Shown: piece after piece, positions 86-3,551 of the stretch
Numbering within the stretch: position 1 is the stretch's first letter
How the letters are laid out: each line of letters starts with the position of its first letter
From: a virus
Lineage: Duplodnaviria; Heunggongvirae; Uroviricota; Caudoviricetes
Strand: one strand, 5' to 3'
Length of the DNA stretch: 8,259 nt
Virus record (IMG/VR): IMGVR_UViG_2695420676_000017
Program-made: the position numbers and the translations under genes
Notes under the pieces: model-generated
What the model was told of the DNA's origin: nothing
What the model saw: only the letters and a program-made list of their open reading frames with translations
Database searches by the model: none

Positions 86-645
86 TCCGCCTGTTATCGG
101 CACTGTTGCCGCCCGGTCCGGCGTGGTCAGCCAGCGATCCGGCGATTGCCGGTGCGGCACCGTCATTAACCCGTGTTCATCAGCGTGCGGATGCCCTGAT
201 GCGGGAGCTGGATCCGCGCACCACCACCGAACTGATAAACCGCTGGGAGCGTCTGTGCGGCCTGCCGGATGAATGTATTCCCGCAGGGACACAGACCCTT
301 CGCCAGCGTCAGCAACGGCTGGATGCGAAGGTTAACCTGGCGGGCGGCATCAACGAGGATTTTTATCTTGCACAGCTTGCTGCCCTGGGCAGACCAGATG
401 CCACCATCACGCGATACGACAAAAGCACCTTCACCTGCTCATCGGCCTGTACTGACGCGGTGAATGCGCCGGAATGGCGGTATTACTGGCAGGTCAACAT
501 GCCAGCTGCCACCAACACCACCTGGATGACATGTGGTGATCCCTGTGATTCCGCACTGCGTATCTGGGGCGACACCGTTGTCGAGTGTGTGCTTAACAAA
601 CTCTGCCCTTCGCATACCTACGTAATTTTTAAATATCCGGAGTAA
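34..645 (+). CDS. Phage baseplate/tail protein, DUF2313 family (Mu gp48 / P2 gpI / e14 YmfQ-like); 5' end replaced by IS-derived sequence, true start uncertain (GTG 34 or GTG 73)
   Basis: ORF ends TAA at 643-645, 3 nt before the tail-fibre ATG. Contains the LLPPGPAW motif near the N-terminus that I associate with this family. Native sequence begins only at 86 (end of the IS repeat). GTG at 73 has AGGTGG 9 nt upstream, inside the IS end. High-GC phage-like composition. Confidence 0.6.
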
Positions 646-952
646 TCCATGCATCGTATAGACACGAAAACCGCGCAGAAGGATAAGTTCGGCGCGGGTA
701 AGAACGGTTTTACCCGTGGTAACCCCCAGACCGGCACACCTGCCACCGATCTGGATGATGACTACTTTGACATGTTGCAGGAAGAACTCTGCAGCGTGGT
801 GGAGGCATCCGGTGCCAGCCTGGAGAAGGGGCGGCATGACCAGCTGCTTACCGCGCTTCGTGCGCTGCTGTTAAGCCGCAAGAATCCGTTTGGCGATATC
901 AAATCTGATGGCACGGTGAAAACGGCTCTCGAAAACCTTGGTTTGGGAGAAG
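281..952. repeat. Left arm of a 672-bp inverted repeat (3' part of gp48-like gene, fibre constant N-terminal region and crossover site A)
   Basis: Reverse complement of 2880-3551. Verified by hand at both ends (646-705 vs 3121-3180; 926-952 vs 2880-2906; 281-290 vs 3542-3551). The mirrored ORF-track pairs 439-837(-)/2985-3383(+) and 762-998(-)/2797-3060(+) give identical translations. Confidence 0.9.
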
Positions 953-1410
953 GTTCGGCATTACCCGTTGGTGTGCCTGTTCCGTGGCCTTCCGCCACTC
1001 CGCCAACGGGGTGGCTAAAATGTAACGGAGCAGTATTTTCTTCTGAAAAGTACCCAAATCTGGCAAAGGCTTACCCAACATTAAAATTACCAGATTTACG
1101 CGGTGAATTTATTCGTGGCTGGGATGATGGGCGCGGGATTGACTCTGGTCGTAACTTATTATCTGCACAGAATGATGCAATTCAGAATATTGTTGGTTCT
1201 TTTGGGCGTACCCAGCTTTTTAGAGACGTACTTAGTTCAGGGCCATTTAGTCAACATGGGCAAGTATTATCTACAGGTCTAAAGGAAGCCGCAATTATTG
1301 AGGGTTATGGCGCTTATAACTGGACATTCGACGCATCTCGCTCAGTTCGCACAGCATCTGAAACCCGCTCCCGTAACATCGCCTTTAATTATATTGTGAG
1401 GGCTGCATGA
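649..1410 (+). CDS. Phage tail fibre protein: constant N-terminal domain (residues 1 to about 100, ending LENLGLGE) fused at crossover site A to variable C-terminal receptor-binding cassette C1
   Basis: ATG at 649 with GGAG 7 nt upstream. C-terminal part has motifs shared with P2 gpH / Mu S / P1 S fibre tips ([17 protein letters not shown], terminal NIAFNYIVR). Stop overlaps the next start (ATGA at 1407-1410), typical fibre-chaperone coupling. Confidence 0.85.
926..951 (-). other. Crossover site A, 26-bp Hin/Gin/Pin/Cin-type recombination site (inverted relative to sites B and C)
   Basis: Reverse complement reads TTCTCCCAAACC-AA-GGTTTTCGAGAG: two 12-bp half-sites around a 2-bp core, closely resembling hix/gix-type sites (TTnTCnnAAACC nn GGTTT...). 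It lies exactly where the fibre sequence switches from constant to variable (codons for LGLGE). Confidence 0.75.
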
Positions 1411-2012
1411 TAAGTAAAGCTGTATTAAATAATGAACTCATCGCCACAAAGGCCGGAGACATTACCGTTTATAATTATGATGGTGAAACACGGGAATATA
1501 TTTCCACATCAACTGAATATCTTGCTGTGGGTGTTGGTATCCCGGCATGTTCCTGTTTAGATGCTCCTGGCTCATATAAAGCTGGTTATGCAATTTGCCG
1601 TTCTGCAGATTTTAACTCATGGGAATATGTGCCAGACCATCGCGGTGAAATCGTCTATAGCACCGAAACAGGAGAATCAAAAGAAATCACACTTCCGGGT
1701 GATTACCCTGAAAATACAACCACTATCGCCCCGTTAACGTCATACGATAAATGGGATGGTGAGAAATGGGTGACCGATACTGAGGCACAGCATAACGCCG
1801 CAGTAGACGCGGCAGAAGTACGGCGCCAGTCACTGATTGATGCTGCTATGGCTTCCATTAGTCTGATTCAGCTGAAATTGCAGGCCGGGCGGAAGCTGAC
1901 GCAGGCAGAAACAACCCGGCTTAACGCTGTGCTGGATTACATTGACGCGGTGACTGCAACAGATACCAGCACCGCGCCGGATGTCATCTGGCCTGAACTA
2001 CCGGAGGCGTAG
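1407..2012 (+). CDS. Tail fibre assembly protein (Tfa/gpU-type chaperone) cognate to cassette C1
   Basis: Translationally coupled to the fibre gene. C-terminus [24 protein letters not shown] is the conserved Tfa tail. Its 3' end overlaps the convergent tfa gene by 29 bp, as in Mu U/U'. Confidence 0.85.
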
Positions 2013-2427
2013 GCCATTCAATATCTGGAGCACTGGAGGTATCAACCAGTTCCAGTGCGTCCAGATAATCCAGCCATAAATTATATTGTTCCAGCTCGTA
2101 ACCTTTCAGACGACCAATAGCAGCTTTGCCAGGCCACTGATGGGTATTGATGTAGGTATTGACTTCTGAAACCAAAGATATCTTTTTCATTTCAGCCGCC
2201 AGCATCTCATCCTCTTTTGAAGGCGGCGGGGAATTAATCCATATTGGCCGTCCTGAACTGTCAGCGCCAATTTCTTTCCCTTCTGGATGCAGCCCAAGAA
2301 ATTGCTCATATGTTTCTCTGGTAATTTCAATAACATCATCAGGAAGCGTTCCCGCATCCTCATATTCTGGAAACAATTCTTGCAGATAAAAACTTTTACT
2401 TGCGGGTGAAAAGAATACTGAGTTCAT
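1984..2427 (-). CDS. Tail fibre assembly protein (Tfa) cognate to cassette C2
   Basis: Convergent with Tfa1. Conserved C-terminal block [46 protein letters not shown] 2 nt after the stop of the upstream fibre ORF on the minus strand. Confidence 0.85.
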   Translation of the reverse strand: MNSVFFSPASKSFYLQELFPEYEDAGTLPDDVIEITRETYEQFLGLHPEGKEIGADSSGRPIWINSPPPSKEDEMLAAEMKKISLVSEVNTYINTHQWPGKAAIGRLKGYELEQYNLWLDYLDALELVDTSSAPDIEWPTPPVVQAR

Positions 2428-2429
2428 TC

Positions 2430-3173
2430 TTACCGTCCAATGATTAACGCTGAGACGCTGGTATCTGAAGGAAAGGCTGCATTCAGTGGTTTGTCGACTT
2501 TGAACACAATCGTATTATTCCCCCTGACAGCGGCAAAAGAACAAACCGCCGTCGCGTATGAACCTGTAATATTACTGGATACACCACCATAAGCTGTTGT
2601 TGATACCAGAGGGATAACGCCCAGCACCTTATTAGGAAATACAAAGGGCAATGTGGCTGTGGCAATATAAGACTTATTAGAACCTGTAATGGCATAAGCA
2701 TTATCAGTCATTCCATTCATCGCCACTGGACCGCTTATACTTACAGTAACCATCTGAATGATTAGCCCGTCAGGTTGACGAATCACAAAATTTCCATTGC
2801 CACCAGTAACCGTCCAGAAAGACATATCAGGGATTTGGTTTTCCCCGTTGCCCACATTTCGTTTTGCCGCTTCTCCCAAACCAAGGTTTTCGAGAGCCGT
2901 TTTCACCGTGCCATCAGATTTGATATCGCCAAACGGATTCTTGCGGCTTAACAGCAGCGCACGAAGCGCGGTAAGCAGCTGGTCATGCCGCCCCTTCTCC
3001 AGGCTGGCACCGGATGCCTCCACCACGCTGCAGAGTTCTTCCTGCAACATGTCAAAGTAGTCATCATCCAGATCGGTGGCAGGTGTGCCGGTCTGGGGGT
3101 TACCACGGGTAAAACCGTTCTTACCCGCGCCGAACTTATCCTTCTGCGCGGTTTTCGTGTCTATACGATGCAT
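2430..3173 (-). CDS. Second full-length tail fibre gene: duplicated constant N-terminal domain (identical to that of 649-1410) fused at site B to variable cassette C2
   Basis: First ~100 residues identical to the plus-strand fibre. After LGLGE it continues [16 protein letters not shown]..., a different receptor-binding domain. Lies within and just inside the right IR arm. Confidence 0.8.
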
Positions 3174-3551
3174 GGATTACTCCGGATATTTAAAAATTAC
3201 GTAGGTATGCGAAGGGCAGAGTTTGTTAAGCACACACTCGACAACGGTGTCGCCCCAGATACGCAGTGCGGAATCACAGGGATCACCACATGTCATCCAG
3301 GTGGTGTTGGTGGCAGCTGGCATGTTGACCTGCCAGTAATACCGCCATTCCGGCGCATTCACCGCGTCAGTACAGGCCGATGAGCAGGTGAAGGTGCTTT
3401 TGTCGTATCGCGTGATGGTGGCATCTGGTCTGCCCAGGGCAGCAAGCTGTGCAAGATAAAAATCCTCGTTGATGCCGCCCGCCAGGTTAACCTTCGCATC
3501 CAGCCGTTGCTGACGCTGGCGAAGGGTCTGTGTCCCTGCGGAGAACTCAGG
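2880..3551. repeat. Right arm of the 672-bp inverted repeat
   Basis: Reverse complement of 281-952 (see left arm). Confidence 0.9.
2881..2906 (+). other. Crossover site B, 26-bp Hin/Gin/Pin-type recombination site
   Basis: TTCTCCCAAACC-AA-GGTTTTCGAGAG, identical to the reverse complement of site A; sits at the constant/variable junction of the minus-strand fibre gene. Confidence 0.75.

Follow-up and report, generated by a model that had tools for sequence, protein, structure and literature searches.

Does a tail-fibre switch with two constant regions in mirror image work as an evolved device with two expression sites, or is the second constant region the trace of an accident? The question is raised by the window, the whole 8,259-nt stretch of the IMG/VR virus record IMGVR_UViG_2695420676_000017 that was analysed. 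The locus is a Pin/e14-type switch in an SfV/e14-like prophage remnant beside ssrA, in its last few kilobases. Its modules are those of e14, SfV and SfIV, and they come in the same order: ymfQ, the constant part of the fibre gene, two opposed cassettes each with a tfa gene, an stfE-like ORF and a serine invertase. The window ymfQ-N is 94 to 97% identical to SfV and SfIV. As in the G segment/Gin of Mu and the C segment/Cin of P1, a Hin-family invertase decides which of the alternative C-termini follows the constant fibre N-terminus; in P1, each variable part has its own chaperone gene (10.1101/2022.07.24.501295). The invertase gene, pin (4513..5067, plus strand), was recognised by profile match and comparison and encodes 184 amino acids from the annotated start. 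The ORF (4477/4513-5067) matched PF00239 (1.8e-51) and PF02796 (4e-13) and is annotated as pinE in relatives. A small serine recombinase with a resolvase catalytic domain and a C-terminal HTH therefore adjoins the segment, as the switch family requires. Switches of this family also use a Fis-dependent recombinational enhancer that lies in cis within the recombinase gene. The pin of the window has the same sequence as in relatives with an inverting segment, with 0 mismatches to the ssrA-locus copy of strain 602687. Three cargo genes were searched with PADLOC, Pfam and PHROGs, and the sole result was one PHROG of unknown function.

A repeat search of the window found an inverted repeat of 672 nt per arm, at 281..952 (plus strand) and 2870..3541 (minus strand), with arms that are 100% complementary and separated by a spacer of 1917 nt. 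The mirror-image repeat is genuinely present in the given sequence, and a chance origin was ruled out, since 672 nt match perfectly and three crossover sites were found where 0.01 were expected. In the preliminary description, made from the letters alone, the duplication of the constant region as a 672-nt mirror repeat had already been recognised; its left limit, 281, was correct, but the right limit had been placed at 3551 and lies at 3541. Each arm consists of the last 365 nt of a Mu gp48/YmfQ-like gene, the first 101 fibre codons (the constant region N) and a crossover site (site A in the left arm), and the right arm is the mirror copy of the left. The gp48-like identity of the gene end inside the repeat, also proposed before, agrees with Pfam PF10076. 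The inner ends of the arms coincide with crossover sites, and the arms lie outside the invertible segment S. P1 has inverted repeats of 0.62 kb that are enclosed by the cix sites and are part of the variable region. The arms of the window, in contrast, flank the invertible segment from outside and stop at the sites, and they contain the constant part together with the end of the baseplate gene upstream. P1-like repeats were rejected because the arms lie outside the crossover sites, and the earlier statement that the repeat covers the constant and not the variable region was correct, the arms carrying N and the ymfQ 3' end.

The crossover core TTCTCCCAAACCAAGGTTT occurs three times in the window, at 933-951 (minus), 2871-2889 (plus) and 4433-4451 (plus, one mismatch), against a chance expectation of 0.01. 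It is the same core as in the e14 P segment/PinE (and PinQ) of E. coli K-12; the P-segment repeat TTGGTTTGGGAGAAGG is quoted in PMC12529663. Site A (926..951, minus strand, 26 bp) has the reverse complement TTCTCCCAAACC AA GGTTTTCGAGAG. Site B* (2871..2896, plus strand) has kept its resident C2-proximal half-site, but position 2885 is the first base departing from the ancestral B site, as seen in the relative L001, and since its other half is now an N-type half-site, B* equals site A inverted. Site C (4433..4458, plus strand), TTCTCCCAAACC AA CGTTTATGAAAA, has the sequence of ancestral site B and repeats B* in direct orientation 1562 nt further downstream. Inverted 26-bp sites with a conserved core, A and B*, thus bound S (953..2869), as the switch family requires. 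S contains the C1 part, tfa1 (1407-2012, plus) and tfa2 (1984-2427, minus), with Caudo_TAP domains, and the C2 part of the fibre gene (2430-2869, minus). Beyond the right arm follow the terminal 111 nt of an IS3-family insertion sequence with its IRL end and orfA start (3543..3653, minus), found by sequence comparison and 100% identical to L001 4001-4111 and L003 9001-9111. Next come tfa3' (3654..4061, minus), an assembly gene whose 3' end is cut off by the IS tip as in the e14 remnant, and the cassette C3 (4073..4486, minus), an stfE-like, pin-proximal ORF with a gp53-like C-terminal domain (ORF list, profile match). The C3 ORF reads through site C and has one mismatch to locus Q of relatives. 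Three features had escaped the preliminary description: the IS fragment of 111 nt at 3543-3653, and the cassette at 3654-4486 and crossover site at 4433-4458, each the third of its kind.

Both fibre genes are complete, as claimed earlier. N+C1 (649..1410, plus strand; 253 amino acids), taken from the ORF list and matching a tail-collar domain profile, differs by one residue from the annotated protein of strain 602687, and N'+C2 (2430..3173, minus strand; 247 amino acids; ORF list) is identical to the annotated protein of strain CD45; the two have exactly 101 N-terminal residues in common. Since A and B* are identical inverted 26-bp sites, a flip between them would swap C1 and C2 and leave both genes whole, which supports the exchange that had been predicted. 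S occurs in both orientations among the sister genomes (L001 versus L002 and L006): 602687 is in state N+C1, CD45 and PS1Thumoskin9 are in state N+C2, and the flanks are otherwise identical. An A x C flip would move C3 to the left constant region, and a B* x C deletion would return the exact ancestral state.

The intact fibre ORFs, assembly genes and crossover sites would suit a switch that evolved two opposed expression sites, makes two fibre specificities at once and merely exchanges them by inversion. Moreover, the IS orfA start signals precede the right copy, and an in-frame fusion ORF of OrfA and YmfQ (3177..3581, minus; ORF list) is coupled to it; this ORF consists of IS OrfA codons 1-13, a Ser and the C-terminal 120 residues of YmfQ, and its stop sits 3 nt upstream of the N'+C2 start codon. 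Cryptic-prophage fibre chimeras can also have a phenotype (StfE2; PMC12529663). The fusion protein, queried in two versions, had zero matches in the gene catalogue. The survey covered 3 sister complete genomes, 80 IMG/VR loci, 10 YmfQ' contexts and 10 N+C2 contexts, and an internal second constant region was absent throughout these genomes, loci and gene contexts. A single constant region was found in the three closest complete genomes and in about 100 related loci, the only exceptions being two hairpins at draft contig ends (L059 and L097). Among 5426 complete E. coli genomes the repeat arm occupied a median of one place per genome and three at most, and the mirror arrangement was not found in the phage genome collection. 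Comparison with related prophages, suggested earlier, thus showed that the mirror arrangement is not conserved but private to this sequence; nothing in the survey of sister genomes, IMG/VR loci and gene contexts supports a conserved dual-expression design, which is ruled out.

The genomic setting argues in the same direction. The window begins within the left (IRL) end of the IS3-family element (1..85, minus strand), with the orfA ATG at 13-11 (minus); positions 1-85 are 100% identical to 3569-3653 and to the IS end in L001 and L003, and the transposase in relatives has HTH_Tnp_1 and rve domains. This element separates the prophage remnant from its tail genes and cuts ymfQ after codon 7, so that ymfQ' (73..645, plus; PF10076; annotated as YmfQ in L001), a Mu gp48-like baseplate wedge gene, lacks the first 7 codons and the upstream operon in comparison with the intact ymfQ of NWU_3. 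In sister strains, the baseplate and tail genes are absent upstream of the locus. Since the IS cuts ymfQ and the upstream genes are missing, the left copy is without the late-operon promoter and the cognate tail is absent in cis. A promoter and terminator scan of 1-4600 gave counts no higher than in shuffled sequence. With the arrangement private, the remnant tail-less and the scan at chance level, the 'two opposed expression sites' of the preliminary description are not supported as a working or evolved logic. The arms, in addition, show zero divergence, so the duplication must be very recent, and at its outer boundary it is joined illegitimately to an IS fragment. An evolved two-site switch is thus extremely unlikely. 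Very unlikely, too, is a real and active structure in which the right-hand N' would be transcribed from behind the IS orfA start signals, coupled to the OrfA-YmfQ fusion, giving a constitutive fibre with its chaperone while Pin shuffles three cassettes between two differently expressed sites. If this were true, the fibres could, by analogy with StfE2 of e14, mask phage receptors, and the locus would show how a break at an invertase site captures a cassette from another prophage and builds a multi-site shufflon in one step.

The source of the additional DNA could be traced piece by piece. The window differs from the closest genomes by one block of 1562 nt that runs exactly from crossover site to crossover site. 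It consists of a 657-nt reverse copy of the ymfQ 3' end and the fibre constant region (2885-3541, within the right arm, 100% identical to 281-937), a single base, and 904 nt of e14-type sequence, in which the terminal 111 nt of the IS have kept their connection to the truncated tfa and the fibre C-terminal cassette. Window positions 1-2884 correspond to the ssrA locus of 602687 with 2 mismatches and 4432-8259 to the ssrA locus with 0-1 mismatches, whereas the counterpart of 3543-4431 is the e14 locus, as found in 602687, in PS1Thumoskin9 and on a metagenome scaffold (1 mismatch, 99.9%). All three sister genomes carry the junction between IS tip and tfa3' in their e14 remnant at icd, at a distance of 1.65 Mb. 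Of the two donors, the left one (281-952) is still whole in the window, and the e14 donor of this strain lies beyond it. Every inserted piece thus has a copy elsewhere, as a templated insertion requires, with the exception of the orphan base 3542. That the block also imports DNA of the e14 locus points to an accident of repair or assembly rather than to design.

All three junctions lie at short homology or microhomology. J1 falls within the core of 15 nt that the inverted sites A and B have in common, with 2885 as the first differing base. At J2, ...CTGCGG + A + GAACTCAGG..., the right arm meets IS-internal sequence illegitimately; the orphan A at 3542 matches neither partner (G is expected from ymfQ and T from the IS), and the GAA at 3543-3545 is a 3-nt microhomology between them. 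What follows the IS end beyond J2 is the e14-locus tfa3' and not ymfQ. J3, the switch from e14-derived to resident sequence, falls inside an 82-nt stretch (4422..4503) that is identical in the ssrA and e14 loci and includes the crossover site. J2 was not found in the 5426 complete E. coli genomes, the GTDB species representatives or the JGI metagenomes. The view that the outer boundary carries no crossover site was correct, as the right arm ends at J2, and this also supports the statement that the invertase alone did not produce it.

Several other origins were considered and rejected. Action of Pin at a quasi-site would have to use the only half-site-like string, GGTTTTCTTGTT (3567-3578), which lies 25 nt off J2, and a transposase product was ruled out because J2 sits 111 nt inside the IS and not at its TG...CA tip. 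Simple inversion is incompatible with the coexistence of an intact 280|281 continuity and J2, a classical tandem inversion duplication would give three copies with an inverted middle one, of which the third, direct copy is absent, and homologous recombination between IS copies of the two loci would have swapped whole flanks and left a full IS.

We somewhat favour a private copy-paste repair scar made by template switching. The ancestor would have had one constant N-terminus, two C-terminal cassettes in opposed orientation with one tfa gene apiece, inverted 26-bp sites and a serine invertase, and the 1562-nt block would have been inserted exactly at the pin-proximal crossover site in a single break-repair or replication accident of three steps. 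The inverted site cores would have primed fold-back synthesis, a template switch at microhomology would have led into the e14 IS copy, and re-annealing would have occurred at the site/pin homology; the initiating break may have come from Pin itself. The outcome would be a second mirror constant region, two intact fibre genes and three crossover sites, and we infer that the structure is a neutral scar and not a device. In fold-back inverted duplications and MMBIR templated insertions, an inverted copy arises at short inverted homology, a junction lies at microhomology and pieces are copied from elsewhere. The window likewise has an inverted copy at short inverted homology and a second junction with 3 nt of microhomology; unlike in those cases, the first switch falls exactly on a recombinase crossover site and one template lies 1.65 Mb off in the sister genomes, and unlike in the classical tandem inversion duplication there is no third direct copy. 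The concept of MMBIR is that of PMC8421209. Against the scar stand the complexity of an event with three junctions and the fact that bacterial junctions seldom contain a single untemplated base. Rearrangement at such sites does happen, as seen in the finished genome CP148297.1, where the same IS-ymfQ'-N is fused at site A to a cassette of a P2-like prophage, and this counts for it.

Exchange between sites of different prophages is known from the finished genome L095, and J1 and J3 lie exactly at crossover sites. The structure could be real but have arisen through J2 as the join of a large icd-ssrA tandem duplication, followed by Pin inversions between e14 and ssrA sites; on the map of 602687, J2 indeed has the polarity of a duplication join (ssrA locus at 3.60 Mb, e14 at 1.95 Mb). 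This route requires a duplication of about 1.65 Mb plus two more inversions, and such duplications are unstable and costly, whereas a local templated insertion gives the same sequence in one event. We regard it as very improbable.

A less likely but serious rival is an assembly or scaffolding artefact, with a real genome that has one constant region. In a culture of mixed orientation, the assembler would walk the hairpin N - S - N', which would then be joined to a contig starting in the e14-side IS end. The arms are perfectly identical, and N|C1 and N|C2, the inner junctions, are those that the two switch states produce naturally and that a mixed culture would feed to the assembler; both points also weigh against the scar. 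The same is true of the related drafts. L059 and L097 have N - S - N' with perfectly identical arms, the mirror copy of N following the invertible segment for 351 nt and 68 nt, respectively, and stopping at the contig end. In L097, pieces of the kinds seen in the window, C3-tfa3 and IS-ymfQ, are connected by a single-N scaffold join, and in L023, from the same strain, the join is different and lies at a 10-nt overlap; the L023 junction, C3 joined to the IS interior, had zero matches in complete genomes. As would be expected of a short-read contig, the window opens 85 nt within the IS, and J2 was seen nowhere else (complete E. coli genomes, GTDB representatives, JGI metagenomes and gene catalogue). 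J2 itself is hard to explain in this way. Its partners share only 3 nt, and a graph or overlap assembler would not create it from a standard genome; de Bruijn misassembly cannot make J2 because no repeat of k-mer length is shared. A scaffolder would have placed N, but position 3542 is an A that matches neither partner. Unlike in L059 and L097, the mirror copy here is internal, 672 nt long and runs on through a novel junction, and the path via the 111-nt IS fragment into tfa3' would need read support. Most likely, then, the window holds an ordinary tail-fibre flip-switch with a one-off patchwork of about 1.5 kb of copied DNA, or an assembly error.

The second mirror constant region, the third site and the third cassette set the window apart from e14 and all surveyed relatives, in which a single constant region goes with two sites; the third cassette is IS-truncated and comes from the e14 locus. 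The Hin/Gin/Cin/Pin family as a whole has a single constant region and two cassettes, a pattern from which the window departs with two mirror constant regions and three cassettes. Min of plasmid p15B and the R64 shufflon, which are conserved designs with a single expression site, have crossover sites and C-terminal cassettes in numbers above two, and the cassettes can be shuffled onto a constant N-terminus. Like these systems, the window exceeds two of each, with three sites and three cassettes, but it differs in its two constant regions, its one truncated chaperone gene and its private arrangement.

Since the locus is a tail-less remnant, the arrangement is of little importance for the phage biology of this strain. 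If it is an artefact, it is a warning that phase-variable inversions together with IS copies yield assemblies that resemble novel gene arrangements. If it is real, it is a clean natural case of a templated insertion that is complex and has a serine-invertase crossover site at its centre, and it suggests that crossover sites can seed break-induced template switching. It would further suggest that one step can be enough to give a two-cassette switch its third cassette and third site as well as a second expression site, and such a one-step gain would be a plausible route to multi-inversion systems.

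A repeat search of the window returned a single outstanding inverted repeat, 281-952 against 2870-3541, with arms of 672 nt that are 100% complementary and a spacing of 1917 nt. This confirms the mirror-image duplication noticed in the preliminary description, with its right limit at 3541 rather than 3551. Each arm holds the 3' 365 nt of a baseplate gene resembling Mu gp48/YmfQ, codons 1 to 101 of a short tail-fibre gene and a crossover site. The core of that site, TTCTCCCAAACCAAGGTTT, is found at 933-951 (minus strand), 2871-2889 (plus strand) and, with one mismatch, 4433-4451 (plus strand); 0.01 occurrences are expected by chance. 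Both fibre genes are indeed complete ORFs, as had been claimed: the left constant region N runs into the C-terminal cassette C1 (649-1410, plus strand, 253 aa) and its mirror image N' into the cassette C2 (2430-3173, minus strand, 247 aa), with 1 and 0 differences, respectively, from proteins annotated in two sister genomes. Pfam gave the fibres a tail-collar or gp53-like C-terminal domain and identified an invertase of the resolvase type as well as three assembly genes with Caudo_TAP domains in the window, which also carries the tmRNA gene ssrA (7200-7562, minus strand) and ends in smpB (7777-8259, minus strand).

The closest complete genomes, 602687, CD45 and PS1Thumoskin9 (99.8 to 100% identity), have a common gene order: a ypjA fragment, an IS3-family insertion sequence (IS), ymfQ without 7 codons, the fibre gene, the tail-fibre assembly gene tfa, an opposed tfa, an opposed C cassette, pinE, three hypothetical genes, ssrA and smpB. 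The locus represents the final part of an SfV/e14-like prophage that lost its tail and baseplate genes at the IS; other strains have intact versions with the baseplate genes upstream, and ymfQ-N is 94 to 97% identical to phages SfV and SfIV. In these sister genomes, the switch has one constant region, and since its invertible segment lies in one orientation in 602687 and in the opposite one in CD45 and PS1Thumoskin9, it is live in the lineage. Upstream of the ypjA fragment, sister genomes carry a pin-like recombinase pseudogene fragment (1847-2014 of the ssrA-locus stretch L001, 85% identical to window 4636-4776), which points to an earlier round of prophage decay at the island. A second locus, the e14 remnant at icd, had its tail module deleted by the same IS, which there abuts a truncated tfa, followed by the cassette C3, a crossover site, pinE and mcrA. 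In e14 stretches from sister strains (L003 7555-9510 and L007), the stretch extending from the tail terminator as far as the tfa gene is missing at a copy of this IS that encodes the identical transposase, WP_085968792.1. Tail genes are absent from the ssrA and e14 remnants of the sister strains, and since e14 is IS-deleted as well, both fibre switches of the lineage are tail-less remnants.

Piecewise comparison with the sister genomes divided the window into four segments. Positions 1-2884 equal the ssrA locus of 602687 with 2 mismatches, 2885-3541 are the exact reverse of its ymfQ-N region with no differences, 3543-4431 equal the e14 remnant of 602687, CD45 and PS1Thumoskin9 with 1 mismatch, and 4432-8259 equal the ssrA locus again with 0 to 1 mismatches. 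Therefore, the extra DNA is one 1562-nt block that reaches from one 15-nt copy of the site core to the next and consists of 657 nt of reverse-copied ymfQ-N, the base A at 3542, the terminal 111 nt of the IS and a 793-nt piece of the e14 cassette. The first junction, J1, lies inside the core common to the inverted sites A and B, and position 2885, the first base past the central AA, is the first difference from the ancestral B site. The second, J2, is illegitimate: the ymfQ reverse strand ends in CTGCGG, then comes A and then GAACTCAGG, which lies 111 nt into the IS; both partners have GAA. The third, J3, falls somewhere in 4422-4503, 82 nt that are identical in the ssrA and e14 loci and include the crossover site and the start of pin.

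Judging from these junctions, the most economical real history would be one accident of repair or replication. If the DNA broke at site B or close to it, perhaps in a Pin cleavage that was aborted, the 3' end would have folded back onto the inverted core of site A, with 657 nt copied; after a microhomology switch to the IS copy at e14, about 900 nt would have been copied, past the e14 crossover site, and the other broken end may have captured the copied strand at the 82-nt homology. A route that takes two Pin inversions and a duplication of some 1.65 Mb would be less parsimonious than such an accident.

The arrangement is not conserved among relatives: among 80 IMG/VR loci that share the constant region, 79 have a single copy of it, and in complete genomes the arm occurs at a median of one place per genome. 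J2 was absent from 5426 complete E. coli genomes, GTDB species representatives and JGI metagenomes, and the OrfA-YmfQ fusion protein encoded across it was not found in the gene catalogue. Standard loci accounted for 8 of 10 gene contexts of the truncated YmfQ and for all 10 of the fibre N+C2.

All routes taken together, we lean towards a real structure and regard an assembly artefact as less likely. An artefact would fit the start of the window, 85 nt inside the IS, as a short-read contig starts, and it has counterparts in draft assemblies of relatives. In L059 (1-2532), the contig begins with 351 nt that mirror the fibre constant region perfectly and are separated by the invertible segment from the genuine ymfQ and baseplate genes; this contig-end hairpin probably stems from a mixed-orientation culture. 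Two drafts of one strain (L097 7463-11865 and L023 1877-6491) have the ssrA-linked pin, then C3, then IS-interior sequence leading into inverted ymfQ', N and the invertible segment, which ends in 68 nt of N' at the contig end in L097 and in 52 nt of pin flank in L023. A single N base joins the C3-tfa3 piece to the IS-ymfQ piece in L097; in L023 the sequences meet differently, at a 10-nt overlap, a join that occurred in none of the complete genomes. Odd assemblies at this locus thus do arise from mixed-orientation cultures and IS copies. However, the mirror copy in the window is internal, and the partners of J2 share 3 nt only, so that a standard genome and a graph or overlap step cannot give J2; a scaffolder would leave N, but the base present is A, which matches neither partner. 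Moreover, rearrangements at crossover sites do occur in real genomes, since in the finished genome CP148297.1 (L095 9577-11886) the same IS-ymfQ'-N continues in frame at site A into another C-terminal cassette, from a P2-like prophage (214-aa ORF). This cassette is followed by a different invertase (81% nucleotide identity to pin) and P2-like sheath and tube genes, which implies invertase-mediated exchange between two prophages at their crossover sites, with a large rearrangement of the chromosome as the probable route.

Between pin and ssrA, the window carries three conserved cargo genes (5266-6990; 70 aa, plus strand; 114 aa and 343 aa, minus strand) that gave no Pfam or PADLOC match; the 343-aa protein matched only phrog_6191, a PHROG of unknown function. 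The L097 strain has a different cargo gene (502 aa) in the same place. The interval separating the cargo genes from ssrA contains a near-perfect hairpin at 7046-7074, AAAAAAGCCCGCAA / TTGCGGGCTTCTTT, that resembles a bidirectional terminator. Matches in several genomes (e.g., PS1Thumoskin9, JNE132847 and 24AR0142) end at 7231-7235, within the ssrA 3' end, which places the boundary of prophage attachment there; beyond it, PS1Thumoskin9 has another element with an integrase.

J2 fuses codons 1 to 13 of the IS OrfA in frame with the last 120 residues of YmfQ (ORF 3177-3581), and the stop of this ORF lies 3 nt upstream of the N'+C2 start; this places the right-hand copy downstream of start signals that belong to the IS. 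The IS has deprived the left-hand copy of its operon, and a consensus promoter scan on both sides gave no signal above shuffled expectation. Given also the lack of conservation, the proposal of two opposed expression sites was not supported. Site A (926-951, minus strand) and the right-hand site B* (2871-2896, plus strand) are identical 26-bp sites in inverted orientation, and their inversion would exchange C1 and C2 between the two constant regions, as proposed. The third site, C (4433-4458, plus strand), has the sequence of the ancestral B and forms a direct repeat with B*. Recombinase, sites, cassettes and observed inversion make the locus a member of the Pin/e14 family, from which the window departs by the duplicated constant region, the third site and the third cassette; it is unlike P1 because the repeat lies outside the crossover sites, and its likeness to multi-inversion systems is confined to the number of sites. 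The interpretation that we favour is a patchwork scar private to this sequence, or else an error of assembly, within an ordinary switch. Inversion between A and C would put C3, with its truncated chaperone gene, onto the left constant region, and deletion between B* and C would give back the exact ancestral locus. Fibre chimeras that arise from the e14 switch can keep phage T2 from adsorbing (PMC12529663), so that, by analogy, a phenotype for a remnant fibre would not be absurd.
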